This document shows positions 6,745-40,707 of a stretch of DNA of 40,707 nucleotides, piece after piece. Every line of letters starts with the position of its first letter. The first letter of the stretch is position 1. The translations under genes were made by a program, and so were the position numbers. The stretch comes from an uncultured Christensenella sp. GTDB taxonomy: Bacteria; Bacillota; Clostridia; Christensenellales; UBA1242. Below the pieces are notes generated by a model. That model worked only from the letters and a program-made list of their open reading frames with translations. It was not told the DNA's origin and searched no databases. The stretch covers positions 1 through 40,707 of the forward strand of contig CAYJEF010000001.1 in the NCBI GenBank assembly GCA_964369125.1, read 5' to 3'.

Positions 6745-6745
6745 A

Positions 6746-8132: not shown

Positions 8133-8173
8133 TAAAAATTTTGCAAGTTTCTTTACAAAAATTTTATAAAAAG

Positions 8174-8198: not shown

Positions 8199-8489
8199 GT
8201 GTTTTTTATAAGTAATTTTTATTATCTTTAAAATAATTTTTGCACAATTATTAAAAAAGAATATTGGCAAAGTTTTACACAAAATCTATGTTTAAATGTT
8301 TACAACTAAGCGTTGTTATTTGTGGACGAAATACAGACAAATTAACATTCGGTTACTTCTTAATTTTATATCTAATTTTACAATTCTACATTCAAAACCA
8401 CTCGTTCCCGACCAATCGTTCGAGAGTTAAAATCATATGATAAATATATTATAATAATCTTTGTAAAATGCTCGTTTTTGTTTGGGTGT

Positions 8490-8517
8490 TTTACATAAAT
8501 ATGCTACTATGTATATT
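8490..8517 (+). promoter_or_regulatory. candidate promoter of the giant gene (TTTACA-16 nt-TATATT)
   Basis: TTTACA lies at 8490-8495 and TATATT at 8512-8517. This is the most promoter-like of several AT-rich matches in the 458-nt intergenic region, so confidence is low. Confidence 0.3.
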
Positions 8518-8590
8518 GAATAATTATATTATATTCTAATACTGAAAATATTTTCAACTTCTGGCGGGAATAATACTTAGGAGGAAGTCA

Positions 8591-11500
8591 ATGGGAAAGG
8601 ATAAGTTTGGCAACGAAATAGGTAAGGCAAACGCGAATACATATTTTGCAAAACCAACCAATGTCGGTGGCGTTTCTTCCTCTGCAAATTCTCAAAATCC
8701 TTCCCAGAATTTTGGGAGACCAAATACGCCAAATTCTAATCAAAATTTTACTCGTCCAAACACAACTAACTCTCAAAATTTTGCTCGTCCAAATGTGCCA
8801 AACCAAAATCAAAATTTTGCTCGTTCAAACACCTCTCAACAAGGAGTGCCAGCGCAGAGAGTTATCATTCAAAATGGGCAAAGAATTGTCGTGCCAAACA
8901 CGCCTAATCAAAACCCAAATTTTGCTCGCCCAAATAATTCAAATCAAAATTTAAACGCAAACCCAAATGCAAATTTTCAAAACTCGGGAGGCGCAAACAT
9001 TCCCCCTTCTTCTGGCGGACAACCCCCTGCAAAGACTCCAAAACCAAAACGTAAGAAAGCGATAATTTTGTCTAGCATAATTATATGTGTCTTAGCGGTC
9101 GTGGGTATAATCATCGGGGTATCCTCCACAACTCCCACGACAAAAAATACTTACACACTCACTTTGGAAGTGGAGCCTTTTGTCGTCTCAAACACTTCTC
9201 TCGTTATAGTGGAAGGAGAAGTCCCAACTCTGCCAAACATCTCAAATGTTATGTCCGCTGACGGCAGAAAAACCCTTGTCGAATTTATGGGCTGGTTTAT
9301 GGACAGTGCAAAGACTCAGGCATACACACCTTCCGCCTTGGAGGGCGATTTGACTTTGTATGCGGGCTACACTCTCGGCACCGTGACGTCCACTTTTTAT
9401 GCTGTGGATTATTACAATAAATCGGGCAGTGGCTCGTCATCTTACATTTTGCTAGGGCAGATAGAGACGACATATTACACTGGCGAAATAAATTTCCAAA
9501 ACATAAAATCGTCGCTGGAGACTTTTACGGGAAGTGTTTATCAAAACCAAAACTCCGTGCTATCCTATTCCCCGCTGACGGGCAATAGAACTGCCACCTC
9601 TGTGACTGTGGCGGACTATAGAGAATTTTTCAGTAAATACTATTATATCTATGCTTTTACCAGCAATCCAAACAATCAAGACAACAGCAGAATATATCTG
9701 GCAAATTCAAGAGTAGAAACGCCAAACAACGACACGGTGTTCCTTGTGTCCATGGAGGCAAAACCCGTTACAATAAAATTAAACTCCAACCTATCGGGGC
9801 TTTTGTCCTACCCAGCCTACACTGGCGGAACATATGACGACAAATTGACGGACGAAGTGGTCACTATAAGCAACCGAAAATATGGCGACAACTATACCAT
9901 CGAAAACTTTACAACCTATCCTTTTAATGTCCGTGTGCCAGACTATCACAACTTTGAGGGGTGGTGGCTAGTGGACCCGCAGTCGGGCAGTGGCATTACG
10001 CCAACAAGCACAAACTTCATAAGTTTTAAGAACTTAACCAATGTCTCAAAACTCCTTGACTGGAGATTTTTAAGTGGCAGAACCGAAATAACACTATATG
10101 CAAAATGGTCGGAAATTTTCGGCGACATAATTATCTACACCGACTATGAGATTGACGCGAATAACAACGTTCTAACAAAATCACAATTAGATTCCTCTGT
10201 GTCCGTTGGCGTTGCGAAATCTCTTAGCGACATTACACAAGACAAAACAAGTTACCTTTATAAAAACGGCAGTGCGCTCCTTGGCTTTAACACTAGAGCC
10301 GATGGCACAGGTGTGAAGTATGACATATACGACGAGGTCCACGGGATAAAAGGCGCGACCCTTGAACTTTTTGCCGTCTACAAACGAATTGTGGACAACG
10401 TCTATATAAAACTGCAAGACGACGAAACCGACCGCGCAACTGTAGACACGAGCGTGCTTGACGCCATACAAAACTCCATAAATTTGAACGTAGCAAGCGG
10501 TTATCTGTTTGAAGATACTGAGGAAATCTCCGTAACACTTGACATCACAAACTGGCAGATTGTAATCACAAATTTGCTGGAGGGTTCGGAATTTACGTTG
10601 CCCGCTATAACTCGTTCAAACTACACGCTCTCGTTTTATCGCTTGGGCGCTGTTACAAAAAACGTGGGGACAACATATGTTGTGTCGAATCTTGATATTC
10701 TCTCCAGTATTTCGGGCGATACTATAACCACTTTCGTCACTTTTCAATCAGTGTGGACGGGAAACCCAAAAACGCTCTCAATTTTTGCCTATCCAACAGG
10801 GGAGAGCACATATGAGACAAAGGCTTTTAACTTGACGTATGGTATGAGATTGTTGCTAAGTTACAGTAAATCTATTCAAAACAACACCACTACTCTTAAC
10901 TGTGTCTTAAAAAATGCAACAACAAACCAAACTTTGCCAAATGGCAGTTTTGAAATTAAACGCGTGGGTTATTCTTTTCTTACTTTTAGAAATGGTGGCG
11001 AAGAAGGCGACGATCTTTTTGATGCAACTTTTGACACAGCATTTGTGTTAAATGACAATGTTTTTGAAATTTTCGGCACTTGGGAAGTGTGTTCCTATAG
11101 CATTACATACAACCTTGAAGGTGGCACCTATTCCTTCCGAGACGACGGTGAAGGCGATACCGCGACATATGAGCAAGACGGGCTGGCATATCAAACGAAT
11201 GTTTTATTGCTGACTGGCGAAGAAGTGACAAAAGAAGGCTATTATTTCGACGGTTGGGGCAGAATTAGCGGGAGAGTGGACTATTCTCCAAGCAATCTAA
11301 ATGCTGTTATTGAAAATGATATGACTTTGTTCGCCGTGTGGGCGCGCATTAACAAAGCAATCGTCCATATGCACGCAGGCAAAACAGGGAGTGAAGAAAT
11401 CTCGGCAGAAAGAGACGGCAGTTTCGCCCTGCCTGCTGACATTTTCGCGGGTTATACTTTCAGCGAATTTAACACTAGCCCTGACGGCACAGGCACGAAA

Positions 11501-17500: not shown

Positions 17501-20500
17501 AACCCAGACAAGCAAGCACCATACAATCCAGAAATCACTCCACGAGTGGAAACGGCAGGAGGGAGCATAACATTCTATGCTATCTATCAACCTAGAACTT
17601 ACACTTTTAAATTTACTAGCAAACAGAGCCCAAATGACACCTTACTAGGCGGTTATAACAGCGAAATTGTTACAATAGTCGCAAATTTTGACGATGTAAT
17701 CTACTTTCCAGTGAAAAACGACGGGACTACTAACGGCACTACTATTGGAAGATGGTCGTTCCCTAGACAATCATTCTCTCATTGGTTAATTGGCTCTAAT
17801 AATTTTAGCCAAGGGTTTAAATTCACTGTAAATGTCCAAAACTTAAACAGCATAATAGGCAATTTTGAATCTCGCTCGGAAATAGAATTTTGCTCTGTGT
17901 GGGTTGATGCGGTTGTCGTGGTGAAAGTAAAACTCGGCGCAGGAGACATCTATGACTACATCGGCGACGAGAGTAAATATGACGTGGTGTTTGACGGTCA
18001 AAACACCTATCTTGTGTCTGAAAACGAAACACTTGGGCAACAATTTATTCTGCCAACATTGACCAACTACTACACCTTTGGCAAAAGCGCAGTGAGATAC
18101 ATTGACAAAGGCGGTGCGGAAATCCCAGTGGGCGTCAGCAGTGTAACTATCTCAAGTGAAAAGTTGGAAGCGGGACTCGACGCAAAGGGTAGGTTTGTAT
18201 ATATATTAACTCTCAGGTGGGAAAACGCCGAGTGTTATATCAAAGACTACTATGGCGTCGGGACAAATATACACTACTTTTTCTCAAAATTCGATAGCGC
18301 CATAAATTTCGTGGACGCAGACACTCTTTGTGCCACCGCACCAAATTATAATATTTTCATTCTATCCAATGCCGGCAATATTTCTTTGACAAAAGGCGTT
18401 ACGATAACTTCGGCGAAAAACTTGACGATTGCGCTTGATGCCACTGTTTCTGTTTCAGTAAACATTGTCAAACACTCCACATTTATTGGAAATAATATGT
18501 TTAATATCACCAGTGGCGGGTCTCTTTCAATAACCGCCGAGGGTTCAAAGGGAACGCTTGTGATAAGCGGAGCGTTTGCGACCAGCGGAGCGCTTATAAA
18601 ACTAACAAATGCCACGCTAAATCTCGGCAAAAATGTGACGCTTATAAACAGCAAAAATAATACAGAAGGCAAAGGTGGTGCCATAAACTCCATCAACAGC
18701 ACACTTAACATTAATGGCACGAGGTTTGAAAACAACTCCGCTCAACTAACCAACACAACTTCCTCGTATGGCGGGGCTATTTACGCCGAAAACTCACAAA
18801 TAACTGTCACACAAGGTGTGTTTTTGCAAAACAAAGCCAAAAGTCCAGCAGACGCATATGGCGGAGCAATTTATGTAACGGGTGGAACATTATCCATTTT
18901 GCTGGCACACTTCAAGCAAAACTCGGCGGACTATGATATTTCGGCTTCTTCTTATGGCGGGGCAGTGTATGCACAAGGCACAGAATTTAGTTGCACAAAC
19001 GCGTCAAGCACCATAATTTACGAGCAAAATTCGGCAAAAAATGGCTCTGCAATTTATCTCAAAAACTGTACAGACGCGGTCATTTCAAATGTTCACCTGC
19101 TAGAAAACGACAGTGTTGATGGCGGGATATATCTGTATAGTTCCACACTATATCTCTCAAATTCACTTGCTACATACAACACGGCGACTCGTGGCGCTGG
19201 TCTGTTTGTAAACAATTCAAATGTGTCCGTCACTTCTTGCGAATTTTCAAACAACACTAGTGTTTGTGGCGGGGCGATATACATTGAAAATGCAACGCTT
19301 ACCTCCACTGCCACTTTGTTTAACTCAAACTCTGCTCAAGGGACAGAAGTCCAAAGCGGTGACGGCGGAGCCATTTGTGCAATCGGCAGTTCTACCCTTA
19401 TAATAACGGGAAGTGTGTTTGAATTAAACTCTGCCACATATGGTGGCGCAATCTACACTGGTGGATCGACGGTTTTAACTATAAACAAAAATAATTTGAC
19501 CAAAAGCGCCTTTATTAGCAACACGGCCACCAATTCTGGTGGTGCGTTATACCTTGACTCGTCGGCGACAACATCTAGCATATTAAACGCAAAATTCTTA
19601 GAAAACAGCGCAACAAACGCCTCGGGTTCATCTACATATGGCGGAGCAATCTCGTTTAATAATGGTGAAACCACTTTAACAAGTGTCAGGCTTGTAGGCA
19701 ACAGCGCCACAAATGGCGGGGCAATGTTTATTTCGGGCGCGAAAGTCCGCGCGACATCAGTAGACACAATATATATATGTTATACGTTGGAAGACGGCAC
19801 GGTGATAGACAAAGAAGAATATTCCACAGGCAATCTTGTCTATGAAGGAGAGGGCGAAGAGAGCAGTCCACTTGAAGTAATAATCAAAGGAAACAATTCA
19901 GAATATGGCGGTGCATACTACGTCGCTTCGTCCGGCATTTTGTTACTGCTTAGTGGTGAAATTACTTCAAACGACGCAAAATCTTTTGGTGGCGCAATCT
20001 ACAACATTGGCACAATAACGATGACTGCACCAAACTTTGCGGAAAACACCGGGAACTCCATTGTCCACAATGTCGGCATTTTGGAAATCGTGGGGAATGC
20101 GACATTTGGCAATTCACAAACAATATATATAGATCAAAGAGAAGACACTTCCTACTACTATATAACCATAAATATAAACAACTACGACAATAATGGCGAA
20201 AAAATCTATTTAATGTTTGACCTCGTCGGCTATATTCTTAATATTCCTGTGGTAAAATTTACAAACACTACTTATTTTGAAAATTATAAGAATGGCTATA
20301 AAGTTTTTGAGGTCTACGACTCGTCCATTTTCCTCATCTCGCCAAGCAGGACTTCTGCGGATTTGGTGCTTTATCACCAAAACTATAAACTATATTTTAG
20401 CGATGTAAGTAAGGACGTAAACAAAATTACACTGCCTGAACATATAACCTTTGTGTATGATGAGTCTCTTTCGCAAGAATTCGTGGACCTTGTGAACACA

Positions 20501-23500
20501 TACTCCACACAGCGCACCGACTATGTCTTTAGAGGTTGGGCGTATTATTTCACAAACGCGGACAACAAAGGCTCTAGATCTATAGCCACAAACACTGAAA
20601 TATTCGAAATTATTGCTAATCCAAACAGCAACTATCGCTATTTCGAGACTTTGCTATCAGACTTTATTATGCCACCATATGACATCTATCTTTACGCTGT
20701 GTGGGAGGCAAATATCTATGAAATTTCGTATAAATACGACACATATTTAGGCGGTTCGGGCGACAGCAGTTACACCATATTTGGTCAACCAATTACGAAT
20801 GCAAGACTAGACAATTTAAAACAAAACCTCAAATATGGCACTCCCTTTACATTCCCAGCGTCCAGCAAACTAAATTCCTATTCTATAGTAGCACAGGCAC
20901 AAATAAACGACGCAAACCCAACAGATTTTACGAGTATAAAATCTCAAGTGCAGTTTGTGAACTCCGAGCGCGACCCATATGTCTATCCAAAGCAAATAAC
21001 ATATTTTGAGAACGACCAGACCATTTCTTGCGATGTCTATTCAAATGATGGCGTTTACTATTTCTATTGCGAAAGCGTTAAATATATCTTGCGCCAAAAT
21101 TATCGTCCAGACGGATATGTCCTAAATTATTATGAGATAAACGGGAGCAGATACACAACATATGGCAAGCAGTTTGAGATAAATGAAGCGTTTAGCGCCA
21201 ATATAAGCGACAAGAAGATTGTTATAACTCTCTACTACTCGCAAATTTCGCTAAACGTAGAAGTGAATTCAAACGGCGGAGAAGGTGATTTCATTATTGC
21301 AAACAACAAAGTGGGCGACGAGTTTTTGGTGCCATACAACAAATCCGTCACGAACTATTCCTCCTCTTTTGGAGCAATCTTCACGCAGTTTATATACAGG
21401 CAAAACCATGAACTTTTGGGATTTTCTAGAACTCAAGAGGACGCAAATAATGGCATAGTGGACTTCGCTCCCGGCGAGGCGTTTATAGTCACTGAACTTT
21501 CGCAAAATTCTATGATTATCTATGCTGTGTGGGGAACCGCGGTGTGCTTTGTGAAAGACGCGATAACCTTTAATGGAATAACAAAAGACATCTATTATAT
21601 GTCTCTAGATGAGGCTCTACTAGACGTCAACAATGCTTTGTATGCTCAAATAAACTCCACTATAATAATTATCGCCCAGAATGTCACACTTTCCTCGCCA
21701 ATAACAACAATGACAAATATTACAATCCTGCCAAATATCAGGGGAGTAGAGTTGACACTTGCGGGCAATTTTAGCACTACCGAAGCGTTTAAAGTAACAA
21801 ACTCATTTACGCTCACATTTGGGCAAAACGTCCCAGGAGATACCACTACTTTGACCCTAAGCGGGACGGGGACAGCAAGGGAACGAAGCGCAATAAACGT
21901 TGCGCTAGGTGGCAAATTAGTGTTAAATCAAAATGTCATTGCTCGCGACTGGCTTATCACATCGGGTCTTGCATCAAGCTATGGCGCGTTTGCTACAATA
22001 AGCGGTGACCTTGACATTAACGGCGCAAAATTCTTTGGAAACACTGCCATAAACGGCGGGGCACTACACGTGGCAAATGGTGGCAAAGTCACCATAAATT
22101 CTGCGGTGTTTGGCGGGGCTGGCGCCGAGAAGAATTCGGCAACAAAAGGCGGGGCTATATACCTGTCTGTCGGTGGTGGAATTACCATAAATTCTTGCTC
22201 GTTCATATACAACTCTGCCACAAATGGTGGCGCAATATATGTGGCGAACAACGCAAACTATTTTAATGTTTTGTCTGCGGAGTTTTCTAGCAACACCGCT
22301 TCAAACGGTGGTGGAGCATTATTCACAGCAAATGCCATAAGCCTTGGCGAAAGTAGCAGCAGTCATATTACTTTTACCGCGAACTCCGCTCTATCCGGAG
22401 GGGCAATCTATACCGAAAACAGTTTGACCGTTGCATATAACGTGTTCTTTTCTTCAAACCAAGCCACAAATGGAGGTGCCATATATTCCACGGCGTCTTT
22501 GGACATTTTATGCGCAAAATTTGTGGGAAACATTGCGACGACAAACGGCGGTGCAATCTACATTTCGGGCGCAAATATTTTGTCAATCAGTTCTAATAAC
22601 GCTACAAGTGACATTTCTCAAACGCTTTTGTCGTCAAACGGCGCTACATTCGGCGGGGCTATATATAGTAACGGCGCAAACGCAACCATTTCAAACGTGC
22701 TTTTGTCTGGTAACTATGCCGAGACTGGCGGTGCTATTTGCGTGCAAAACGGCACAGTGACGCTGACTGCGCTTGCAGAAATCTACGCAAACGGCAAGCG
22801 TGGCGACGTTGTCGTGACTAAATATGGCGGTGGCGTGGCAACACTTGAAAATGCAACACTTATGGTTAGTGGCAAAATCAGCGGGAACTTTACTTCCATT
22901 AGCGGTGGTGGCGTGTATGCCAAAGACACTTCCAAAATAGTTTTGAAAGAAACCGCGCTAATATCTCAAAACACTTCAAGCGTGAATGGTGGCGGTGTGT
23001 ATCTTGGTGGCGGTAGCAGAATAACAATGAACGGCACCATTTCAAATAATGTTGCGACAATTTCGGGCGGTGGAATTTATCATACGTCCAGCAATGCTCA
23101 AAGCGAATTTATCTATGGTTTGATAGAAAATAATCGTGCAAACTTCGGCGGGGCACTGTATCTATCTAACCTTGAATTTGACGCCGCGGTGACCCTAAAA
23201 GGAACAATATTCTCAGGAAACACTGCAACAAACACAATGTCAAACGAAATTTATGTTCAAGACGACACAAAACTGACGATAACTTCTTCCACAATTCTTG
23301 GCAACATTTATGTCACGTCGTCATATCAGACGGAATTTGTGCAACTGGAACTGGACGTTGCGGCAGTGGTGGACAAAGTTTTTCTCACGCGATATTCCTT
23401 TATAAACGTTCTTAACGAACTGCGAGCATACATAACCGCAAACGACGAAATGAAGATTAAAATCGTGCTAGCGGACTCAGCCACTTTGTATAAAAACAAT

Positions 23501-26500: not shown

Positions 26501-29500
26501 ACAAAAGAGGGGCATAGCGCGCTTCTTGACCTAATCGGCAACGCACAGAGTCCATATTTAACACGAAATGGCTATCAATTTGCATCGTTTAACATTTCTC
26601 AACTAGGCACCGGCGCAAATTATGAATTGGCGGATATTTTTGAAATGCCAGATAGCGACCTTGTTTTATATGTATTGTGGGAGCCTAAAGAGTTCACTAT
26701 CGTTTACCACGCGAATAAACCTGTGGGCGCTTCGGACACGGCAACACTTATCGACCAAAGCGTAACTTGCAATTTTGACACCTTCGTAATTATTTCCTAT
26801 AGTGATATATTCTCTATAACGGGCTGGAAATTCTATAACTGGAACACATCTGCCGACGGCACAGGCACGAATTTTGCTTTTGGCACGAAATACAATTTTG
26901 CATATAACGCCAGCACAACTCTTGACTTATATGCCATTTGGACCCCAAACACATACACCATAAAATATGACGCGGGCGACAATTCTTCTCAAGTCACAAA
27001 CACTTTCAGTGACAGCACAACATATACCTATGACACACAAAGAACTTTGCCAACGGGTTCTTTCACCGCAGTTGGATATACGCAAACAGGTTGGAGTGAC
27101 GACTTTGGCAACAATTTCACATTTGGTCAAGCCGTTAGTAATCTTACGACAGAGGGAGAATTAACACTCTATGCCGTGTGGACGCCAGTCACCATAAAAG
27201 TGTTCTTCCACAGGTCAGGGGCAAGCGACGCCAGCATATACGACGTTACGTTTGCATATGCCGACACAGAACATAACACTCTGCCTCTCGTGAACACAAT
27301 TCCTGGAATAGACACCAGTTACCGTGTGTTCAAAGGTTGGAGTCGTTCCCCATACAGCGTTTGGAAGACGGCGAAAGCGACCTTCATCGACGGCGCAGAT
27401 ATTTCTTCACACTTAACCTCGGGCGACATTCATCTATACCCAATCTGGGCACCATATTCTGCCACAATTCATAGCAACACCACGGGCGAAACCTTTAGAA
27501 CCTATGAAGTGGATAGTAACGGCGAAGTGGAACTCACCTTAACGGAACTCGCGAGTAGATTTAGCAGACTAGGCTTTGAGATTGATTATTTGTCTAACAC
27601 TTCAAACCTTGCAAATTCAACCAGCACATATATGTTCACAAACGGCAGTCTCGTCATTGATTTTGCAATGCTCGGCAGTACACTCGACTTATATATTGCT
27701 TGGAAAGCAGTGACATACACGGTGGAATTTGTGGCAGGGGACATCACCCTTGATGACAAATTAGTCACCACCACGCCAGACGGCACCTCGTTTGCCTCGG
27801 TCGGCGACATTTTAAGCATCACGCTTTATGGCTCAGACGATATAGGAGACACATTCGAGGGTTGGTCGTTTGACGAGCAGTTGTCCACATTCGACGCAGA
27901 ATTGTCACAAACTTTCATGCTAACGTATGACATTCTGGAAAAAATAGCCAACTATCAAACGCTGTCAAACAACACAATCACAATATATGCGCTCTCAACC
28001 ATAACATATAAAATAACTTATGACTTAAACGCCGACGGTCACAACGTCATAAACGCCAGCACGTCGGAAATTTTGTCAAACGGCACGAATATTACAAGCG
28101 ACATTAGCATAAACGACACCGCAAACATTGTCTTTGCGGACAAAATGGGCAAAGTGTGGGAGATTGCGGACATTCAAACGAGTAATGTAAATTCCCGCTA
28201 TGCCTATTTCCTCGGCTGGGCAGAGGACGCAAGTGCGAGCGTGCCAACATACTCTCCTCTTGGGATTTCAACGGCGCGTTTTGCCAAAGACATTACGCTC
28301 TATGCCGTTTGGCAAGATTACACCAATCCATTCTATTTTAATTACACTAATTCGGCAATTACGGGACTAAGCGCTATTGGCGTCAGCAACCTCAGCGCAA
28401 ACGCCAGCATAGTTTTGCCACATCACGCGCTAACCCTCTCGGGCGGGACGCTCACCATTGGCGAAACAATAACTTCGGTAGGGTTTGCACAAAATAATGG
28501 AAACAGCAATATTATTTCGCTTGACTTCTCTCTTTCTACGGCAGTTACGACTCTTCCAGAGTTAGCCTTTGTCAACCTTTCGAATTTGACTTCTGTCACA
28601 AATTTGCCAGTAAATGTGAATATTGCAAACGGAGCGCTATCAAGCAAAAATCTTTCTGAAATTACCTTTATAGGCGCACAAAACAAATATTATTTTGACA
28701 CGGACGGCAATATGTATGTTATCGCGAGCGGTGTCGCCGAACTTCACACGGCACTGGTAAAGATTTCGCTATCGGTCGATGAATTTATTTTGAAAGGCAC
28801 TGTCAACCTATCTGGCACGAACTACACTATCTCAAAACTACAAAAATATGCGCTTTACAACACCGAATATGTGTTTATAACAATTCCAAACTCCGTCACC
28901 GAGATTGCGGGTAGCGCCTTTATGCAAACCGAGTATTTGGTCAACCTTACTGTTCCATTCGTGGGCAAAAATCAAACCGAGAACACCTCTCTTGCCTTTG
29001 TGTTTGGTGGCGCGGATAACGTGCCGTCGTCGCTTAAAAAAGTTACTGTAACAAACCAAACGGAAGTAAAAGCGGGAGCGTTTAAAGATTGCAATGACAT
29101 AACGACCGTCATTTACACAAGTGGCACAGTCACAGTTGTGAACGACGACGCCTTTAATGGTTGTGCCTCGCTTATGCTAACAGGACGAGCGGGCGAATTG
29201 AACCTTGAGTCTCTTGAAACAGTTGGTAACAACGCCTTTAACGGTTGCGTTAGTATAGAAAGTCAAATTAATCTTGCCAGTATAATTACTCTTGGCGATA
29301 ACGCTTTTAGTGGCACAAACATTCAATTTGTGGAAATTAACCGCAACGCACAAAACGTCAGCAACCTTGCCTTTGCAGGTGTCACGACGCTCACGCAAGC
29401 GCGTGTGTTTAGTTTAATCGCCTTTGACGCAGTCATCACAAACACGGGAATCTTCAAAATGCTTAGCGATAACTTCACTAGCGACCAGACAATTTTCGTT

Positions 29501-32500
29501 TCAGCCCATTTCTTCTCCATAATAAATCGCGAAGAAAACGCAGAATATTTGGAATATAATATCGTTGTCGAAGATATGATAGAAGTGTTTAACGCAAACA
29601 AGGATTTTGTGTCTAACCACGCTAGCCTTGAAAGCGCAATTCAAAGCGCACAGCGTGGCGACTATGTTGTAGTCAAATATTGTGAAATTCTAACTAGCAG
29701 TATACTGATAAACAAAGACATAACAATTTTTTCTGCATACGACCAACTTGACTCCGAGAACGAAGCCGCAAACGACTATAACAACAGAACTGTAACGCTT
29801 TCTCGCGACGCCACACTTGCTGGCAATGTGTTCCTCATAAATTCAAACAACGTGACGTTTGGCTATTCTGGCACGTTTAAAGACTACAAAGTTGTGGCAT
29901 TAAATATCGTCGGCAACAATGACGCAAACAGTTCCAGTTTCTTCTCCGTCATAGGTGGCGGTTTGACATTAAGTGGAAACGTAAATATTACAGGGAACCA
30001 AGCGAAAACGGGCTCTGTTGCATTCATTTCCGACGCTCAAGTGGTCGTGAATGGCGCAAAAATCTATGGCAACAAGGCGGTAGAAGAAGGCGCTAATCAA
30101 AACACTGGCAACGGCGGAGTGTTCTATCTTGCCACAAAATCCACTCTTGATATTATCTCTGGCGAAATTTATGACAACACTGCCACGCGTGGTGGCGTTG
30201 CATATTCAGTAGGTCACAGCATAATATCAATCAATGGTAGCAATGCGGACGCCGTGAAAATCTACGAAAACTCCGCCAAAGAGGGCGGTGTGCTTTACAT
30301 TGCTTCCACAATTCTTGACGAATCCGCCACAAACTATGTGGGAAGATCCAAAATTTATAACAACAGCCCAGAGAACTACACAAACTCGTTTGGTGGTGCG
30401 TTCACCATTGCTGGCGGTATGCTCAAAATTACTGACGGCGCAGAGGTGTATGGCAATTCGTCCGGCAACGGTGGGGCAGTCGCGGTAAAGAGTGGCATTT
30501 TAATCATCGGTTCGGCAACCATAGGCGGGAGTTCTTCCGCTCAAGCAAACTCCGCTCTTTCATACGGCACCTCGCAAGGCAACAAGGGTGGCGGTATTTA
30601 CGTGGGCGATAACGGTATTCTAAGAGTAACCGCAGGAGCACTCATTTCGAACAATCAAGCACGATTTGGTGGCAACATCTACTTTGGCGCGACTACAGGC
30701 GGATATGCTTCCATCATTTCAGGTGGCGTAATCTCTTATGGCAACAGTCTTGTGAGTCTAAGCAACAGCACAAACCACTATGGTGGAGGCATTTACGCAA
30801 CAGGCGGTGTTCTAAACATATATAATTGCACCATTTCAAACAACCTCGCGGGCTATGGCGCAGGCATCTACACCATTTCTACAACTCTCTTTGTTAATTA
30901 TGGCACGTTATTTAATGGCAACGACGCAGGTAAGGACGGAGGAGGGTTATTTGTCGCAAAATCCGCGAGCACAAAAATAATTACAATAGACGGCGCGACG
31001 TTTAGAAACAACTATGCAACCACGAATGGTGGTGCTGTGGCAGTGGTCGGCGACGAAGTCGACATTCTCTGCTCCACCATTTCAACCTATATCGGCGTCA
31101 AAAACGACGTATTATACGCTAGCGAGCGTTATAAGGGCGGGAATAATGCAGGTGTTAACGGTGGCGGACTATATATCGCAGGCGAAGGCAAAGTTAATAT
31201 CCTTGGCGCCAGCAACATTCAAAACAACCAGTCAAACACTGGCGCTGGCATATACTTCTATAATGGCGGACTTATTCTAAAAGGCGCTAACATTTCATAC
31301 AACACTGCGACCACCAGGGGTGGTGGACTTTATGTCAGCGACGGCATCGGCGACGGATACAGGAGTAATGGTGCGTTTTTAAGTGTGTTTGAAATCTACG
31401 ACAACGCGACATTCTCGTTAAACACTGCACAAGACGGAGCAGGACTATATTTAGACAACAGGCAAATAGCAATTTCCAGCGCGCGTTTCACTTCAAACAC
31501 TGCACAAAAATCAAACGAAACAAACGGCAAAGGTGGCGCAATATTTGTTAGCAGTGGCGCAGTTTTGACACTTGACGACGTTAGAATAGAGCAAAATATA
31601 TCCACAAACTCTGTTGCATATTCGGGAATATACCTAAACAGCACTTCGCCAAATGCTTTACAAATAACAAATATGCTTCATATGCAAGTGTCAAGAAGTA
31701 TTGCAACGGGCGCCGACACCTCAAACCCAATCTATCTCATATATGGCGCGACGATTATGGTCACAGACAAATTTGTTAGTGGCAGACCAATAAAAATATA
31801 TATGGAACAGGTTTTAGAGGTTAACGAACGTGTGCTTATTGCGCGATTTAATAGCAGAGATGACGCTTCTAGCGCGAAATTTACCGCCGAAGAAATCGTG
31901 TTTATGCAACAAAACGAAAACATCTACGCCGCACAAGCAACTGTGAAAGATTACACGAGCAATGTTTACTATGCTTCCATAAACGACGCCGTCTCCCAAA
32001 CTACGGCGCAAAAACTATATCTAATGCTCCTAAGAGACCAATACATTACGTCTAGTATGACTATTGAAATCCCGCAGGGTAGGGAAGTTGTCATAGTCTC
32101 GCGCCCACGCGAAGATAACGCGACACTGGGCTACAAGATTTACAGGCAGTTTGATGAGCAAGACAAAAACACAGGAACGCTCTTCAATGTTCGTGGCACC
32201 CTTACTATATATTTGGCAAACAGCGATTACAGTTCGTATAGTTCTGCCGAGTTTTATGGCGTTCCAGTCGTCATCGACGGTCAAAGTAACAATCAAACCT
32301 CAGAAATTTGCTCATCTCTTGTCCAAATCTACAAAAATGGCACTCTTAATGTAAATTCGATGGCATATCTCATAAACAACCGCGCGCAAAATGGAGGAGC
32401 AGTTTACGTAGGTGCAAACGAGACTTTAATGGCGGGCGATATTTCTGCCACATTAAACCTTAATGGTGGCAATATATTCAACAATTCTGCCGCCAAAAAC

Positions 32501-35500
32501 GCCAGCAATGTGGGCGGGAACGGCGGTGCTATTTATGTATATTATGGTCAAGTGAACCTAAACAGTGGCACGCTTGGAAAATATGACACGGCGACGTCCA
32601 GTTATTCTGGCAACACAGCAGTGGCGGGCGGTGCAGTTTATATTTCAAACGGCAATTTAACTGCTGGCGAAATGGTAATTGAAGGTAACACTGCGGACAA
32701 AGGCGGAGCAATTTACGTCCACAATCAGGGTACTGTGCAAATGACCAAAACCACTGTTAGAAACAACAACGCCACCACGGCAGGTGGAGCGCTTTGCCTC
32801 TATTCCACAGTTCAAACTTCGGGCGGTGAATATGTCCTTAGTGGCGTGACTTTCACGAATAATATTTCAGCAAACGGTGGCGCGATATACCTATATTATG
32901 GGCTTCTAGTTTTGGGCGATCACACAGGGCAAAGTTTGATAACTTCTTCGCGCTTTACATTAAACTCTGCGACGACTTATGGCGGGGCAATCACAGTTGA
33001 CGGCTATGGCATTATAAAAGCCACAAACGCAGAGTTTACAAATAACACAGCGGGAACCAGCGGTGGAGCGATATTCTTCGGGGCAAACTTTGTTAATAGG
33101 ACAAACGAAGCGGAATCGAATAGCGTTTTGTCACAGGTCCATATCGGCGGAGCAAGCGCAGGAAACACAGCAACTTCCGGCGGTGGAATCTACGTGGCAA
33201 AGGGGCAACTTATTATCAATCAAAATTCTACAGTCAGCCACAACATCGCAACATTTGGCGGAGGACTATTCGTGGGTGACGAGGGGTCTGTTGCCATAAC
33301 AAACAGCACCCTAAGATACAACTTTGCAGACAAGGGCGGGGCAATAATGTTTGCATCGCAGTCCAGCGTCAGCAGTCTCGAATTGTACGGTGTAACAATT
33401 TCAAACAACAACGCAACCGCAACAGGCGCCTCCGTTGGCGGTGGCATCTACGTCGCCGAGAACGCTCTTGGATTAATTGTCACAAACGAAATGATTTCGG
33501 GCGAAAATAGGGTGAAAACAACCATAACGAACAACACTGCAAACTCGGGCGGGGCGGGGTTGTATGTCGCTGGAGGTGAAGTGAAATTGCAAAACACGCT
33601 TGTAACTTCCAATACAACGACAAACGAAACGGGCGCAGGGCTTTTTGTCACGGGAGGCTCGGTCGTGCTCCAAGACGCCACTGTGTCTAATAACATTACA
33701 AACAGACAAGACAAAACGGGTAGCAATATTTACTTCTTTGGTGGCAACATTCGCCTATTTGGCGACAACACGATTTCAAGCACCACCTCGGGCTTTTCCG
33801 GCATAATGCTTGGCAGTATAACCACCACACTCTCTCGCTTCACACTCTCGGGCTCAATCGACAACATTATGGACAGTATATATTTGTCGTCAAACCGCAC
33901 ATATATAGTAGTCAAAGAAGACTCCAGCACGACTTCCACGGTGAAACTAACGCGCACGAACGCCACGAAAACAGTTCGCATCGAACTCTTTATGGACAAA
34001 TCGGCGTCCTTCCACCATGAGTTTGGCAACACGGTCGTTATGTTCGACAGCGCTGTGCTCGCCGAGCAAAAGACACAATATTTCTCGACGTCGCTTGAGA
34101 GTCAATTCCTTCTCAAACAAAGTAGCGACCCAAGCAACTCTTTCTGCACGGTGTTAATTCCGCAATATTTTGAGGAAATTAACACGAATGGCGTCATCGT
34201 TGGAGCATACTACACCTTGCAAGAAGCGGTAAACAAAGTAACAAACGGCAATATAATTCTAATAAACATTGCGGACAAAACAGAAGAAAACAGAGTTTAT
34301 TATGTGTCTTCCACCATTGTCACGCCAGACACGAACAAAAATATTATTATTTCCGCACGCTTAGCAAACACAAAAATTATGCGCGGAATAAATTCCGACG
34401 GCACAGATTTTGCTGGAAATATCTTTAATGTGTCCGCTAGCGACAGCGTCTATTTCGGCGTTCATTCATTGTGGAACAGTGTCTATTCAATCTATTGCAC
34501 AGAGGGTTTTGCCGACTTCACCCTTTCGTTTATTGGCGGTAAGTATTCGTCAACTGCAAGTGATAGCATAAATTCAAGCGCGCATATTCTGCAAAACTCC
34601 GGCATCTTAACGCTTGGGAAGGGCGTAGAAATTACAAACGAACACACCACGGCGAACGGTTCCGCCGTTATGTCCACAGCCGGCGCTTTAAACATAATAA
34701 ACGCCACAATCTTTAACAACTTTGCAAAAGAGGCGGAGGACAACAGCGCTAAAGGTGGTGCAATATTTGCTAGTAACACCGCAGTCGTAATCTTAAACAG
34801 CGTTCTTTACAAAAACTCCTCCGATTTAGGCGGGGCTATTTATGTGCAAAATGGAACGCTTCAAATCTCATACAGCACGATTGGAGGCACTGACAGTGTC
34901 CTTGCCACAGAAGAAACCGCGTCTGCCAACATTGCAAGAAACGGCGGAGCAATTTACTCGGCGGGTTCGACCGTGACTCTGCTCACTGGAGCACTTATCT
35001 CGCAAAACTTCGCTACATTGTGTGGCGGAGGGCTCTATCTTACGTCCTATCTATTACCAAATGGCACTTTTGCTTCATCAAAACTTATTTTGAACGATGG
35101 CGAAATTTCCTACAACTACGCCGTGAACTTTGGCGGTGGCGTCTATGTAGAGGACAACTTCACGTCAGTTCCAAGCGAAAGTGCAACCAGCGCAGAAATC
35201 GAAACATTCTTTAATTCTCGCGTAAACTTGCAACAAAACGGTGGGCAAATATCACACAACACGGCAGGAAATAACGGCGGTGGCGTGTATGCCACAAGTT
35301 TTGTGCTAAGTAATGGCACAAAAACTTTTGGTGGAACAACCATTGTGACTGTAAGTGGAGTAGAAAGAAAAGTCTATGGCGTGGCGGTGAAAATTGCCGG
35401 CGGAGCAATAAATTACAACTTTACACAGAGCGCCACAAGCATGGGCGGTGGCGTCTATCTCGACGGTGCAGAGTTTGTGATAGCAGGGGGCGAAATCAGC

Positions 35501-38500
35501 CACAACAGCGCGTCACTTTCGGGTGGCGGAATGTATTATGTGAGTTCCAGTGTAAAAATCTTTGACAATACGTTAATAATTTTGAACATCGCTGGCGCTA
35601 TGGGTGGCGGGATATATTCTGGCGCCGATTCGGTGACAAATATCGGGCTTATTGACAGCACAAACATTAGCATTTCGGGCAACAGTGTCACCGAGAGCGA
35701 TAGTTATGGCGGTGGCATCTATATGGCATATTCGTCCAAACTCACCATTCAATCCGCCACCATTTCGGGAAACAGTGTGAATGTAGTCAGCGGACTTGGC
35801 AGTGCAATCTACGTGGACAGCAGAACAGCGGGCGACTTCACAATAGGCAGTGGACTTGACTCAAACGGCAATATTACTACGCTGTCTCATAACCTTGTCA
35901 TTACGTCCACAGGCAGTGGTGCAAACAGCGTGTATCTATATAACGGCAGTCAAATTCATATCAACGCCGAATACAGATATTCCGGCACTCCAAACGAATC
36001 AATCGACATTACTTGCGCATACGTCTCCACCAATTACAATAGAGTTATAGCGTTCTTCTCGCAAGACGCGCGCCAAGCGAATATAGACGAGAGTTTGTTT
36101 GTTGGCAAAGACAAATTCGGCAGTGCCTATTGCTTCGTGTTAACCGAAACGCGCGAAGTTGTCATCAGTCAGCGCAATGTAGCACGCGTCAATAACGGCG
36201 TCGTCAGGTTCTTCACGAGCCTAGAAAGTGCCGTGTCCAATATCGACGTCGACAGTCCAGACGAAACATTCATTATCCTTTTAAACAACATTATTGTTAC
36301 AAATGCAATGACCATTTCAAATGCAAACAAAGTGACCATAAAATCTGGCGACATTTCGTCTACCTATGAAATTCTTGAGGTCGGCAGTCCATTCACAATT
36401 TCGCGCCACCAATATGATTTTGACACAAAGATTTTTGAAATATCGTCAAAATCTCTTGCGGGCTCAATGGTAAATATCGAGTTTGTAAACTTTGCAAGTG
36501 CAGGCGTCTCGTCCAGTCTCAGTCAAATTGTTGTCACAGGTGGCACCGTCAATGTCTCACAAGTAAATTTCACAAATCTCTTTGGTGGCGGATCGGCAGT
36601 TGAGGCGACGGGTGGGAGTTTGAATATTTCAGACGTCAACATCTCTTTAAGCAGTGCGGGCAATGGGCTTATTTCTGTATTAGGTTCCGCAAGTGCCACG
36701 ATAACAAATTCCACAATCACAGGCGACAGCGCAAACACGGTGACGAACGGTGCGCTATACGTAAATACCACAGGCACGGTCAATGTGGATAACACTATAA
36801 TAACGGGCATAATTGCCACGAATAACGGCGGGGCAGTTAATCTTCAAAATGGCACGCTAAACTACACAATGACCTCGTTTGACACCCCTGCAATTTATGG
36901 AAACACAGCACAAAACGGCGGTGGCATCTATATTTCAGGTGGAAACATAAACTTCACGAACATTAAAATTAGCGGAAACACGGCAGTGAATGGCGGTGGC
37001 GTCTACGTAGAGACTGGCACCATAACCATAGAAAACGCAAAAATTATGAGCAACACGGCAACAAACGGCGGTGGCGTGTTTGTGAACACTTTTGCAAGCC
37101 TTACTTTAAAAGCGGACGTAACAAACAACGAACAAGCGTCGCTTGGCGGTGGCGTTTACAGCGCGGGGGATCTCACTCTCGCGGGGACTTATATTGCTTC
37201 AAACTCTGCCGAAAGCGGTGGTGGCGTTTACATTGCGTCAGGTCAATTTACGACCTCTTTGGTGGAGGGAGTAAGCGCTCGCATCACTTCAAACACAGCC
37301 AGTAGTTTTGGTGGTGGAATATATCTAAAATCTATCGCAACTCTTGGACACTCGCTGGAAGTAACCTCAAACACGGCACTAAACGGGGGTGGTGTGTGCG
37401 TCGAAAACACGTCTGTCACAATAAACGGTGCGGTCATTTCGCAAAACTTTGCTACAGGTTCGCAAACTGGCAGTGCTGGCGGTGGCGTATATCTTCGTTC
37501 TGGGCAACTTTATCTCACTTCTGGACAAATCACAGGAAACACTGCGCTCTCCACGGACACAAGCACCGGCAGCGGCGGCGGAATATATGTAGCGTCTGGC
37601 GAATTTACGCTAAACGGCACTTACGAAATATCTGAGAACACTGCCAAATTGGGCGGAGGAATATTTCACTCCTCGGGGTCCATAAACTTTACCAGTGGCG
37701 TTATCGGCTCCGAGACAAATGTTCTAGCGACTAGTGAAAACAATTCCAACTCTGCCGATTATGGTGGCGGAATTTACGTTAGTTCGGGTATGCTAACCAT
37801 AATCGGTGGCAAAGTGCAAAACTGCTACGCGACCTATGGCGGTGGCATCTACGTTGCTGGCGGAACAATATCAATTCGCGCTGTCGAAGTATCTTATTGC
37901 TCGGCAGAAGAGGGTGGCGCAATTTATTACAACAAGGACGACGAGCAAATTGTCCTAACCGAAATAAACCTCATCAGTAACATTGCGGAAAATGGTGGCG
38001 GATTGTATGTGAACTCTACAAGTGTCATCACTTTGTATAATTCAAATGTCAGCGCAAACGAAGCGCAAGCAGGTGGCGGAGTGTTTGTTTATAAAGGCAC
38101 TTTAAAACTCGACGGACCAAACTCAATTATTGGCACCATAACTGCTTTGGGCGCAAACACAGCAGACAACGGTGGTGGCGTATATGTGGACGCTCTTGGA
38201 AAGTTACTCGTCGTGGACGGCAAAATTTCTAACAACACGGCGGACAATGGCGGTGGCGTATATGTTGCCTCAGGCGACTTTGGCACTCTTGGCAGTATTG
38301 AAATGACGCTCGGAGAAATATCCGGTAATAATGCAATAAACGGCGGTGGCATATATAGCCAAGGCAGGTTCAGGTTAATATCGGGCACTTTGACAGCGAA
38401 CAATGCCACAAACGGCGGTGGCATATACTTCGCAGGCGGTGTGACAGAAGAAATATCAAACATCGAAATATTCTTGAACAATGCTACAAACGGTGGCGGT

Positions 38501-40579: not shown

Positions 40580-40621
40580 AAAATAGTTTTAAAAAGGCAC
40601 CAATTGTGATAATATAAACAT

Positions 40622-40707
40622 ATGGAAGAAAATCTAATTGATAAACTAATCGGCGCGTTTATGTCTCTGCCGGGCGTTGGGTTCAAGACAGCCCAGCGCT
40701 ATGCTTA
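40622..40707 (+). CDS. recR: recombination protein RecR (5' end only; continues beyond window)
   Basis: Absent from the ORF track because it is truncated. ATG 40622 is the first possible start, since an in-frame TAA lies at 40610-40612. The translation MEENLIDKLIGAFMSLPGVGFKTAQRYA matches the conserved RecR N-terminus (I-x-x-L-I-x-x-F-x-x-LPG(I/V)G-x-K-(T/S)-A-x-R-x-A helix-hairpin-helix). No SD is visible upstream. Confidence 0.8.
   Translation, partial: MEENLIDKLIGAFMSLPGVGFKTAQRYA

Follow-up and report, generated by a model that had tools for sequence, protein, structure and literature searches.

On sequence evidence, positions 8591–40579 of the 40,707-nt stretch of DNA analysed here (the window) are a real, uninterrupted and probably chromosomal gene of a Clostridia bacterium, probably gut-type, and its 10,662-aa product is probably a 1.1-MDa type II (N-in, C-out) membrane-anchored extracellular fibre, acting as an adhesin or a spacing fibre. 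The product carries recognizable domain families and a single transmembrane (TM) helix in an architecture conserved among relatives; from the sequence we infer how it is oriented in the membrane, how it is exported, what shape the fibre takes and that it serves in adhesion. Correctness of the assembly is supported indirectly by collinear orthologues.

The initial annotation had taken the span for a genuine gene and not a chance open frame, a reading borne out by the open run, the uniform codon usage and the collinear relatives. Direct reading confirmed the AGGAGG-N6-ATG start and the 10,662 sense codons that follow (Table 1), which end in TAA at 40577–40579. From the base composition of the ORF (43.8% GC), a stop is expected once per 17.3 codons, so the observed run is not a matter of chance, and the ORF listing held no other ORF longer than 610 aa in the whole window. 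The two other + strand frames of the span both had longest stop-to-stop runs of 110, and the three − strand frames had 142, 137 and 91, of which the first two slightly exceed the ceiling of 130 aa originally given. A codon-usage log-likelihood model trained on five upstream genes favoured the frame of the giant ORF in 70 of 70 windows of 900 nt (smallest margin 63); codon usage in each of these was like that of the neighbouring housekeeping genes, and GC was even along the gene (0.38–0.47 per 2 kb). A start motif, M[GE][KR]DKFG, is conserved in the giant protein and its relatives. The gene follows enolase after an AT-rich spacer of 458 nt and ends 42 nt before recR, with no terminator-like site between it and recR in the terminator scan. 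This position between enolase and recR, a core-genome site, recurs in several relatives. There were no tRNA genes (tRNA scan) or T1SS genes in the window, and Pfam and NCBIfam searches returned no enzyme, toxin or secretion-system domains in the giant protein or the neighbouring genes.

Table 1. Features of the giant gene and its flanks, in window coordinates.
Feature	Residues (aa)	Position (nt)	Strand	Basis and remarks
Terminator-like hairpin of enolase		8168–8197		Consensus scan only
Two sigma-70-like promoter candidates		8427–8455 and 8490–8517	+	Consensus scan only, no evidence of function
Shine-Dalgarno AGGAGG		8579..8584	+	Read from sequence; 6 nt ahead of ATG at 8591
Giant ORF	1–10662	8591..40579	+	10,662 codons + TAA, ATG start; codon statistics, collinear homologues
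N/Q/P-rich low-complexity tail	1–156	8591..9058	+	Translation, DNA repeat family D12
TM helix, AIILSSIIICVLAVVGIIIGV	157–178	9059..9124	+	Kyte-Doolittle scan
Stalk of divergent InlB-B-repeat/Flg_new-like units	179–3210	9125..18220	+	Pfam, self-HMM, hhalign, 2y5p
Beta-helix block 1	~3220–3810	18248..20020	+	Self-BLAST, Chlam_PMP, POMP_repeat, rung HMM; boundaries approximate
Spacer	3811–4399	20021..21787	+	Flg_new-like units aa 3955–4039 and 4249–4315, plus unannotated sequence
Beta-helix block 2	~4400–4900	21788..23290	+	Chlam_PMP, self-BLAST, POMP_repeat, rung HMM
Spacer	4901–5339	23291..24607	+	One Flg_new-like unit, aa 5264–5338
Beta-helix block 3	~5340–5700	24608..25690	+	Self-BLAST, POMP_repeat, rung HMM
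Second Flg_new array	5701–6580	25691..28330	+	Six units within aa 5974–6575
BspA-type LRR_5 block	6581–7000	28331..29590	+	Pfam; three stretches, best aa 6746–6861
Beta-helix blocks 4 and 5	~7001–8400	29591..33790	+	Self-BLAST, POMP_repeat, rung HMM
Isolated weak Flg_new-like unit	8561–8629	34271..34477	+	Self-HMM, E=2.6e-4
Beta-helix block 6	~8630–9050	34478..35740	+	Pfam, self-BLAST, rung HMM
Unannotated segment	9051–9300	35741..36490	+	Without Pfam match, without PDB sequence match
Long terminal beta-helix	~9301–10480	36491..40030	+	Rung HMM, AF2 model, Foldseek
W/Y-rich orphan C-terminal region (distal tip)	10481–10662	40031..40576	+	Without Pfam match
recR start (context, outside the giant protein)		40622..40707	+	Translation matches RecR of L003

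A locus of this size could also be a chimeric or repeat-collapsed join of shorter surface-protein genes, or a split or pseudogenized one, which we consider very unlikely. Repeats inside the gene are only 30–62 nt long and 60–87% identical, the internal repeat comparison found none that were long or near-identical, and the highest internal protein identity in a self-comparison was 47%; repeat collapse during assembly thus lacks the sequences that usually cause it. The uniform composition and codon usage argue the same way, as do the relatives: the available DNA of L004 is open for 6,396 codons without an N, and L027 and L003 together are collinear with aa 153–10627, so that domain order is kept in independent assemblies at 27–51% identity. 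What speaks for a broken locus is that three relatives are interrupted, namely L001 and L027 by one frameshift each and L003 by an in-frame stop (nt 5–7, 26 codons ahead of its called start), which lies at the very edge of the contig. Homology nevertheless runs straight across the frameshifts of L001 and L027. We rejected natural splitting as the default reading of these two, since homology crosses each break and the assemblies are error-prone; the alternative, close relatives with the region divided among several shorter genes, found no convincing support, two assemblies being split by a single frameshift each. The interruptions may be sequencing errors, or the gene may sometimes be split or decaying.

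Between them, relatives from independent assemblies are collinear with nearly the entire chain. L004 is 50.8% identical over aa 1–6377, where its available DNA ends, and L002 is 49.8% identical over aa 1–6109 and resumes at aa 6201–6428 past a 100-N gap, both with enolase upstream. L027 is collinear over aa 153–9616 at 32% identity, and L003 (protein P0004) covers aa 8034–10627 at 27% identity, with recR downstream as in the window. Against L002, identity was even along the chain (42–67% per 250 aa) and only 8 indels of at least 8 aa occurred over 6,100 aa. A search of a 90%-clustered protein database with an N-terminal query yielded one match only, the fragment P0001, yet L002 and L004 encode orthologues; the giants themselves are largely missing from that database, so the low count is not evidence of rarity. 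Metagenomes contain collinear relatives and even larger Flg_new arrays, 680 homologues carry PF13229, PF02415 or PF05048, and proteins combining Flg_new with Beta_helix or with LRR_5 are common among the homologues.

The N-terminal tail contains NQNF(A/T)RPN-type repeats, ends in KTPKPKRKK, and shares many invariant columns with P0001; a like tail is present in P0128 and P0130. A KKPKPKRKK stretch precedes the single TM helix, which is the sole strongly hydrophobic segment of the protein (Kyte-Doolittle 3.17 vs 1.95 for the next best) and is conserved in P0001, P0122, P0128 and P0130, the tail and TM segment together being conserved in P0128, P0130 and P0122. The positive-inside rule points to a predicted cytoplasmic location for the tail. 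There was no LP.T[GAS] motif anywhere in the giant protein and no C-terminal hydrophobic segment, and the N-terminal signal anchor originally proposed survives as a single predicted TM helix without LPXTG.

Beyond the membrane, three named families (PF09479, PF02415 and PF13306) were recovered above their Pfam gathering scores, as had been anticipated, in a search of the giant protein as 1,000-aa pieces. Flg_new (PF09479) scored 53.4 bits (E=2.8e-14) in aa 1–1000 and 27.9 bits in aa 1001–2000, both above the cutoff of 27 bits. Pfam by itself detects a handful of units; a converged self-trained HMM found 25, to which two weak Pfam matches and, by hhalign profile-profile comparison, two good and about six weak units were added. 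This gives ~27 solid Flg_new-like units and up to 35 with weak ones, short of the ~42 first estimated. They are highly divergent (mean pairwise identity ~16%), with 9 of 30 matching Pfam Flg_new individually at E ≤0.1, but a 30-unit profile matched the InlB B-repeat structure 2y5p_A (positions 5–77 / 7–71, E=3e-6), the match spanning the full unit length. About 17 solid units, plus weaker ones, lie in the stalk, where aa 597–771, 1552–1670, 2127–2379, 2666–2827 and 3000–3210 carry no annotation. A PDB sequence search with the 3,032-aa stalk returned no matches, and AF2 gave no usable model of aa 179–1175 from a 2-sequence alignment (pLDDT 29.6).

The remainder of the chain holds about seven PMP-type beta-helix blocks, interspersed with Flg_new units and one LRR_5 block, with a short break between blocks 4 and 5 near aa 7700–7800. 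Chlam_PMP (PF02415) scored 58.5, 66.8 and 51.2 bits (cutoff 20.6), and the NCBIfam POMP_repeat (TIGR01376) up to 69 bits (cutoff 15). The protein contains 106 GGA(I/L/V) motifs at a modal spacing of 25–27 aa, and about 102–108 rungs at the same spacing were detectable, close to the ~120 of the initial annotation; 38 of them lie in the terminal helix (aa 9409–10471, rung HMM). An AF2 model of aa 9763–10662, built from a 21-sequence alignment (mean pLDDT 79, pTM 0.79), was confident and all-beta to about aa 10472, with pLDDT >90 in most 10-residue blocks of aa 9763–10472. The top Foldseek matches of this model, which include adhesins, polysaccharide lyases and tailspikes, were all right-handed beta-helix proteins and all weak (best E=0.025, TM ≤0.3). 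The homologues carry PF13229 and PF05048, but on the giant protein itself PF13229 remained above E 0.01.

The protein could instead be a platform for degrading or modifying polysaccharides, with catalytic (lyase, glycosidase or epimerase-like) helices acting on mucin, plant or microbial glycans, and Flg_new and LRR domains serving for positioning only. We regard this as quite improbable. The best Foldseek matches do include PL6 alginate/chondroitin lyases, GH87, GH136, GH110 and phage tailspike depolymerases, but these fold matches are insignificant (E ≥0.025, TM ≤0.3) and mirror a beta-helix fold that is generic. PF05048 (NosD) or PF13229 (Beta_helix), both also known in enzymes, is present in some homologues. 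The sequence signature of the giant protein is the GGA(I/V)Y / NxA PMP-POMP repeat, as typically seen in passenger or adhesin helices without catalysis; none of the pieces searched matched a CAZy-type Pfam family, and no carbohydrate-utilization genes adjoin the giant gene.

The LRR_5 block (PF13306) scored 76.3 and 81.5 bits (E=2.6e-21 and 6.2e-23; cutoff 27.7). LRR_5 of the BspA type and the InlB-type repeats are both classic modules of ligand binding or adhesion, which weighs against a purely structural coat or spacer (S-layer-like, glycocalyx-like or for cell-cell spacing) in which length and rigidity, not ligand binding, would be selected. The giant protein is also only ~50% identical to its relatives, compared with 83–85% for BipA and enolase, as expected of an interaction surface under diversifying pressure; it is single copy per locus and has no known self-assembly domain. 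The domain-by-domain collinearity with very few indels at 25–50% identity does imply constrained length and architecture, a pattern unlike that of adhesins with fast-varying repeat number, and the recurrent core-genome site between enolase and recR and a weak Foldseek match to the RsaA S-layer protein lean the same way. Overall, we judge a coat or spacer without ligand binding to be improbable.

Repeat families had been described as running coherently from start to end; the families themselves were recovered, but about half of the giant protein has no Pfam or NCBIfam match. Scanned against Pfam at permissive E-values, 18 gaps and spacers that lack annotation produced two weak Flg_new matches plus noise, and a PDB sequence search with the C-terminal 1,613 aa returned no matches. 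AF2 confidence is low over the distal tip (aa 10481–10662), and the C-terminal 223 aa had no homologues among 5.8 billion proteins. An orphan, fast-evolving C terminus of ~180 aa at the end of a long, beta-helical filament is typical of variable toxin tips, raising the prospect of contact-dependent effector delivery as by CdiA, MafB or polymorphic toxins. Such a role appears extremely improbable, however: nothing resembling a toxin, a pretoxin (PT-VENN, PT-TG) or an immunity element was seen, recR lies so close downstream that no immunity gene sits next to the giant gene, and an N-terminal TM anchor offers no mechanism of release. Moreover, the C-terminal region weakly matches the C terminus of the positional orthologue P0004 and so is weakly conserved, not swapped.

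A membrane-anchored adhesin or spacing fibre is thus our preferred reading, and its assembly can be outlined for a monoderm envelope, which the taxonomy of the nearest relative leads us to assume. The 156-aa tail would remain in the cytoplasm while the TM helix, a predicted uncleaved signal anchor, guides the growing polypeptide into the general Sec/SRP pathway, and some 10,480 residues would be exported co-translationally by threading. The proximal ~3,000 aa, made up of small InlB-B-repeat domains, could then form a beads-on-a-string stalk through and past the wall. The distal ~7,400 aa would present rigid PMP-type right-handed beta-helix rods with Flg_new hinges between them, bearing the one BspA-type LRR module and the orphan tip domain, and these surfaces may bind host glycoproteins, mucus or other microbial cells, making the giant protein a very long adhesin or spacing fibre. 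Extended, it might measure roughly 150–250 nm. In gut methanogens, parallel beta-helix repeat proteins are termed 'adhesin-like proteins', and List-Bact and LRR proteins are considered adhesion factors (PMC7883539).

The giant gene does not overturn current views; it extends the known giant adhesin-like surface proteins of Clostridia by one well-defined member and, probably, by a family that can be delimited. Its domain-order conservation at 25–50% identity is unusual for repeat adhesins and hints that length or position matters. Tentatively, it may be the first complete representative of an undescribed, vertically inherited family of surface proteins of at least 10,000 aa in a Christensenellales-like lineage, a fixed-length 'molecular ruler' or multi-ligand fibre. 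Such a family might be marked by the N/Q/P-rich tail, the single N-terminal signal anchor, a non-homogenized InlB-type stalk of ~3,000 aa and a fixed series of PMP rods; because domain order and total length stay nearly indel-free from 50% down to ~25% identity, its members would be length-calibrated, position-specific fibres, as opposed to expandable repeat adhesins, and their conserved cytoplasmic tail would connect the fibre with an intracellular component. Bacterial proteins of more than 10,000 residues are rare and assemblies usually fragment their genes, so a complete gene whose start and stop are clear and whose neighbours are known provides a useful reference for annotating its numerous truncated relatives, in metagenomes from the gut and elsewhere. 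If it is expressed as one chain, how a monoderm cell exports ~10,500 residues via Sec from an N-terminal anchor, and what the fibre's ligand is, become concrete questions.

Among known systems, the giant protein departs from sortase-anchored (LPXTG) adhesins and from type V autotransporters, which have a C-terminal barrel and a cleavable N-terminal signal peptide; its sole hydrophobic segment is at aa 157–178, and no autotransporter family matched any piece. It resembles chlamydial Pmps in the GGA(I/L/V) / NxA signature above cutoff (PF02415, TIGR01376), in the prediction of a right-handed beta-helix and in its probable role as a surface adhesin. Those are type V autotransporters of ~90–190 kDa from a diderm, however, and combine an N-terminal signal peptide with a beta-barrel at the C terminus, whereas the giant protein has an N-terminal TM anchor and no barrel, belongs to a Bacillota lineage and is 6–10 times larger. 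With Fusobacterium nucleatum Fap2 (type Va, PDB 9qe7), an adhesin in which 2,905 residues of beta-helix make a rod of 47 nm (PMC12397386), it would share the use of a very long beta-helical rod to hold binding sites at a distance from the cell. However, Fap2 (3,786 aa) is one continuous helix with a C-terminal barrel in the outer membrane, compared with ~7 helices with hinge domains between them and an N-terminal inner-membrane anchor here; Fap2 was among the Foldseek matches, at an insignificant E=3.4. Listeria InlB has one B-repeat against ~27–35 very divergent units in the giant protein. BspA-type LRR proteins (Tannerella forsythia BspA and the BspA-like proteins of Trichomonas and Entamoeba), which are surface-exposed binding modules, share the LRR_5 block, but here it makes up ~4% of the chain, flanked in mid-chain by a Flg_new array on one side and a beta-helix on the other, and is not the dominant module.

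Staphylococcal Ebh/Embp are similar in size (~10,000 aa), and like the giant protein they have one TM anchor, a monoderm host and a repetitive rod that stands out from the cell. Their arrays are alpha-helical FIVAR/GA modules, their signal peptide is of the YSIRK type and their TM anchor is C-terminal, whereas the giant protein is all-beta and anchored at its N terminus; families of the Ebh/Embp (FIVAR/GA), RTX-BIg (LapA/SiiE) and Bap kinds gave no Pfam match at E ≤0.01 in any 1,000-aa piece. The Giant1–5 proteins of Apilactobacillus kunkeei (3,000–8,000 aa, a five-gene cluster, with an N-terminal beta-solenoid related to serine-rich-repeat adhesins; PMC12863079) are likewise very large extracellular Bacillota proteins with beta-solenoid domains and elongated predicted shapes, without a detected sequence relationship to the giant protein. 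Giants of the Omnitrophota type have numerous TM regions, a divergent SecA DEAD helicase domain and at least 30,000 aa (West-Roberts 2023), in contrast to one TM helix, no SecA match and 10,662 aa here. The same study mentions Clostridia genes of 10,000–30,000 aa from mammalian gut metagenomes that combine Listeria-Bacteroides repeats with LRRs and ShdA-like domains (West-Roberts 2023, bioRxiv 10.1101/2023.11.21.568195), and with these, and with the collinear relatives, the initial view that the composition falls outside known kinds of giant adhesin finds no support. That short description does not include the architecture of N/Q-rich tail, TM helix, ~3,000-aa stalk and serial PMP beta-helices, nor the enolase/recR locus or a collinear family. 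Compared by description only, the giant protein and these Clostridia genes share the class of organism, the size range, the Listeria-Bacteroides (Flg_new) and leucine-rich repeats, autotransporter-adhesin-like (ShdA-type) beta-helical segments and a presumed role in adhesion, and at 10,662 aa the giant protein falls within the 'large' protein definition of that study (>10,000 aa; Clostridia; Listeria-Bacteroides repeats and LRRs).

The initial annotation had proposed a giant surface-protein gene at this locus, and we confirmed that observation overall: the gene is real, and its position, strand, ATG start and number of codons are exactly as first described (see table). The interpretation attached to it stood only in part, as its count of about 42 Flg_new domains and its claim of an unprecedented composition both required revision. 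GC content is even along the gene (43.8%), and from base composition a stop is expected every 17.3 codons. The longest stop-to-stop runs in the other five frames were 110, 110, 142, 137 and 91 codons; these frames are therefore broken, as previously described, with the 130-aa ceiling set slightly too low because two runs reach 142 and 137 codons. A likelihood score for codon usage, trained on the five upstream genes, preferred the frame of the giant ORF in 70 of 70 sliding 900-nt windows (minimum margin of 63 log units). Within the gene, DNA repeats span no more than 30-62 nt and share 60-87% identity; at the protein level, no internal match exceeds 47% identity. Repeats this short and diverged would leave no substrate for repeat-collapse misassembly.

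Features of the giant gene, its product and the surrounding window
Feature	Position	Strand	Remarks
Partial ORF running off the window start (MILEEIKKANMQALKDKDQNARAVYSVL...)	1-392	-	putative GatB/YqeY-domain protein, by resemblance
Lipoprotein-like ORF, 469 aa	522-1931	+	signal …LALTAC; no Pfam match
Nucleotidyl transferase	upstream of giant gene	+	
Small multidrug-export family (Sm_multidrug_ex) ORF	2846-3538	+	TTG start
Metallo-beta-lactamase-fold protein	upstream of giant gene	+	
BipA/TypA	4899-6731	+	
Enolase	6819-8132	+	
Shine-Dalgarno AGGAGG	8579-8584	+	six bases ahead of ATG
Giant ORF	8591-40579	+	ATG start, 10,662 codons, TAA stop
N/Q/P-rich low-complexity tail	8591-9058, aa 1-156	+	NQNF(A/T)RPN-like repeats, KTPKPKRKK end
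Hydrophobic segment (TM helix)	aa 157-178	+	sole strongly hydrophobic segment of the protein
Stalk	aa 179-3210	+	'...F.GW...LYA.W' pattern at intervals of roughly 70-110 aa
Beta-helix blocks 1-3	about aa 3220-3810, 4400-4900, 5340-5700	+	self-BLAST, motif, rung HMM
Flg_new units between beta-helix blocks	aa 3955-4039, 4249-4315, 5264-5338	+	self-trained HMM
Flg_new units (n = 6)	between aa 5974 and 6575	+	self-trained HMM
BspA-type LRR_5 block	aa 6581-7000	+	76-81 bits
Beta-helix blocks 4-7	about aa 7000-7700, 7800-8400, 8630-9050, 9300-10480	+	self-BLAST, motif, rung HMM
Single Flg_new unit	aa 8561-8629	+	self-trained HMM
W/Y-rich C-terminal region, distal tip	40031-40576, aa 10481-10662	+	no family match
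recR start	within 40580-40707	+	42 nt past giant gene stop

When the N-terminal 3,200 aa were compared with a 90%-clustered protein database, one fragment was matched (P0001, 47% identity), located on a 10.7-kb Logan contig (L001) that begins inside enolase. Scanning nucleotide collections told us more about relatives. Giant ORFs seem to be under-represented in the 5.8-billion-protein collection, so match counts would understate how common they are. One locus, on a contig from an uncultured Christensenella sp. MAG (L002, CAYIZE010000002.1, 49.5 kb, GC 36%), carries the same six genes upstream, with BipA and enolase 83% identical to those of the window. Collinearity extends over aa 1-6109 (49.8% identity), and after a 100-N gap homology is found again at aa 6201-6428, the end of the compared DNA; we counted eight indels of at least 8 aa in 6,100 aa, and identity was even (42-67% per 250 aa). 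A 134-kb JGI contig (L004, Ga0247842_10000204, GC 40%) shows the same synteny and is open for at least 6,396 codons from the ATG to the end of the compared DNA, collinear with aa 1-6377 (50.8%). The orthologues on these two contigs exceed 6,000 aa, and searches of the 5.8-billion-protein collection returned only fragments of at most 3,132 aa for this family.

A word-index-free HMMER search of aa 179-1378 against 1.84 billion representatives recovered 56 clusters at E <=1e-30, about ten of them collinear across the entire query. Among them, the 6,502-aa P0122 (named 'predicted outer membrane repeat protein' by JGI) gave one HSP that covers aa 153-6296 at 31.8% identity. On its 218-kb contig (L027, Ga0455827_0030), a 4,683-aa gene lies 85 nt further on, and tblastn joins the two into a continuous stretch of homology that changes frame once (nt 29404-29460) and follows the order of the window protein as far as aa 9616, where the compared DNA ends. 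Two more distant proteins (P0128 and P0130, ~26% identity) share the N/Q/P-rich tail, TM helix, stalk and first beta-helix before their contigs end. At the distal end, a 2,724-aa beta-helix ORF (P0004, on contig L003) matches aa 8034-10627 collinearly at 27% identity, with recR coming after it. Overall, aa 1-10627 are covered in the same order by independent assemblies at 27-51% identity. In three relatives the frame is interrupted once: by the frame change in L027, an in-frame stop at the contig edge of L003 (nt 5-7), and a frameshift at which the P0001 gene call stops (L001 nt ~10323-10386), with homology resuming in another frame to the contig end. Such breaks could reflect decay or splitting of the gene. 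Because homology runs across both frameshifts, these are probably assembly errors instead.

The giant gene lies in an ordinary chromosomal housekeeping neighbourhood, and among the window genes we found no dedicated secretion system, sortase, glycosyltransferase or immunity gene. L002 and L004 both carry the lipoprotein-like ORF in the equivalent position (51-53% identity). The last 19 nt of the nucleotidyl-transferase gene overlap the start of the Sm_multidrug_ex ORF; this arrangement is matched, also with a TTG start, in L002. A terminator-like hairpin follows enolase, and the 458-nt spacer between enolase and the giant gene contains two candidate promoter-like sites. No terminator-like site or hairpin was detected between the giant gene stop and recR, and L003 has these two genes in the same order. 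Thus recR could share a transcript with the 32-kb giant gene or use an unrecognised internal promoter.

The N-terminal tail, predicted to be cytoplasmic, contains repeats that constitute a DNA repeat family (D12). P0001 has it at the same position with part of the sequence conserved, and P0128 and P0130 have a tail of the same kind. The Lys-rich stretch preceding the single TM helix indicates a predicted N-in, C-out topology. A cleaved signal peptide is the alternative to a membrane anchor here; an uncleaved signal anchor is favoured, because the hydrophobic segment starts 156 residues into the protein and the tail before it is conserved among relatives. No LPXTG motif occurs in the giant protein.

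In the stalk, Pfam Flg_new (PF09479, the Listeria-Bacteroides repeat, with the InlB B-repeat fold) was significant only around aa 836-1052, with two further weak matches. A self-trained HMM iterated with orthologues converged on 25 Flg_new-like units in the whole protein, and profile-profile comparison using orthologue-based gap profiles added two good units (92-95% probability) and ~6 weak ones. Taken together with the weak Pfam matches, this gives about 27-35 units in place of the roughly 42 proposed initially. A profile built from 30 units matched the complete length of the solved InlB B-repeat structure 2y5p (E=3e-6), and Pfam Flg_new recognised 9 of these units individually; the units are therefore very divergent members of this family. 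AF2 prediction of the stalk from a two-sequence alignment gave no usable model (pLDDT 29.6).

Across the beta-helix blocks, a GG[AG][ILV] motif is present in 106 copies at a modal spacing of 25-27 aa, a rung HMM detected 102-108 rungs, and both Pfam Chlam_PMP (PF02415) and NCBIfam POMP_repeat exceeded their cutoffs. No family match was found for aa 9051-9300. The W/Y-rich C-terminus had no homologue in the 5.8-billion-protein collection, and weakly matched the C-terminus of the positional orthologue P0004. An AF2 model of aa 9763-10662, built on a 21-sequence alignment (mean pLDDT 79, pTM 0.79), was confidently all-beta to ~aa 10472, with a low-confidence tip. Foldseek comparison of this model with the PDB returned nothing at E <=0.001. 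The leading matches were all right-handed beta-helices (PL6 lyases, Ag43, Rhombotarget A, SepA, HK620 tailspike and Fap2) and none was significant, so the modelled fold class is consistent with a beta-helix. Matches at this level would imply no specific enzyme or adhesin relationship.

Export would presumably follow the general SRP/Sec route during translation, since dedicated secretion genes are absent nearby. The proximal Flg_new array could then act as a flexible stalk, and the distal beta-helix rods, with Flg_new units as hinges, would bear the LRR block and orphan tip and offer binding surfaces. As a rough estimate, 102 detectable rungs at 0.48 nm each amount to about 49 nm, or to about 75-80 nm if the whole ~4,500-aa beta-helix territory folds as helix, at the approximately 28 aa per rung of the last block; with the ~27-35 small domains added, the extended molecule could measure roughly 150-250 nm. 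For comparison, the Fap2 helix spans 47 nm with 2,905 residues (PMC12397386). A function as adhesin or spacer is suggested by the roles of these families elsewhere: in gut archaea, adhesion factors are taken to include beta-helix 'adhesin-like proteins' as well as List-Bact and LRR proteins (PMC7883539), and Fap2 and Ag43 are adhesins. The giant protein also changes much faster in sequence (~50% identity) than the genes around it (83-85%). That the protein belongs to a length-constrained, vertically inherited family of giant fibres with a conserved cytoplasmic tail is a tentative proposal, and on balance a doubtful one.

Unlike autotransporter Pmp proteins, the window protein is without a beta-barrel and is anchored at its N-terminus. 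The defining features of LPXTG proteins and of the Ebh/Embp, RTX-BIg and Bap classes were not found in it, nor were the many TM regions and SecA domain of the Omnitrophota giants. The initial view that its composition falls outside known kinds was nevertheless overstated, given three lines of evidence. West-Roberts et al. (2023), who term proteins of at least 10,000 aa 'large', report Listeria-Bacteroides repeats, LRRs and ShdA-like adhesin domains in 10,000-30,000-aa Clostridia genes recovered from metagenomes of the mammalian gut (bioRxiv 10.1101/2023.11.21.568195). Combinations of Flg_new with Beta_helix or LRR_5 recur among homologues, for example in an 'InlB B-repeat-containing protein' from a Clostridia MAG. 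Finally, distant metagenomic relatives of the stalk have frames running off both ends of the examined DNA, with at least 10,128 (L026, ULSO01056144.1), 8,814 (L006) and 8,551 (L021, OIEN01000005.1) codons, composed purely of Flg_new-like units (37-42 detected). A further contig (L013) has an open frame of at least 6,827 codons with Flg_new-like units only (22-42 units detected across the four contigs). No PMP motif was found in the examined frames of these four, which seem to form a distinct kind of giant, larger still. The window protein is thus a complete example of a kind of giant already mentioned, and it probably represents a definable, undescribed family characterised by the tail, TM helix, conserved stalk and serial beta-helices.
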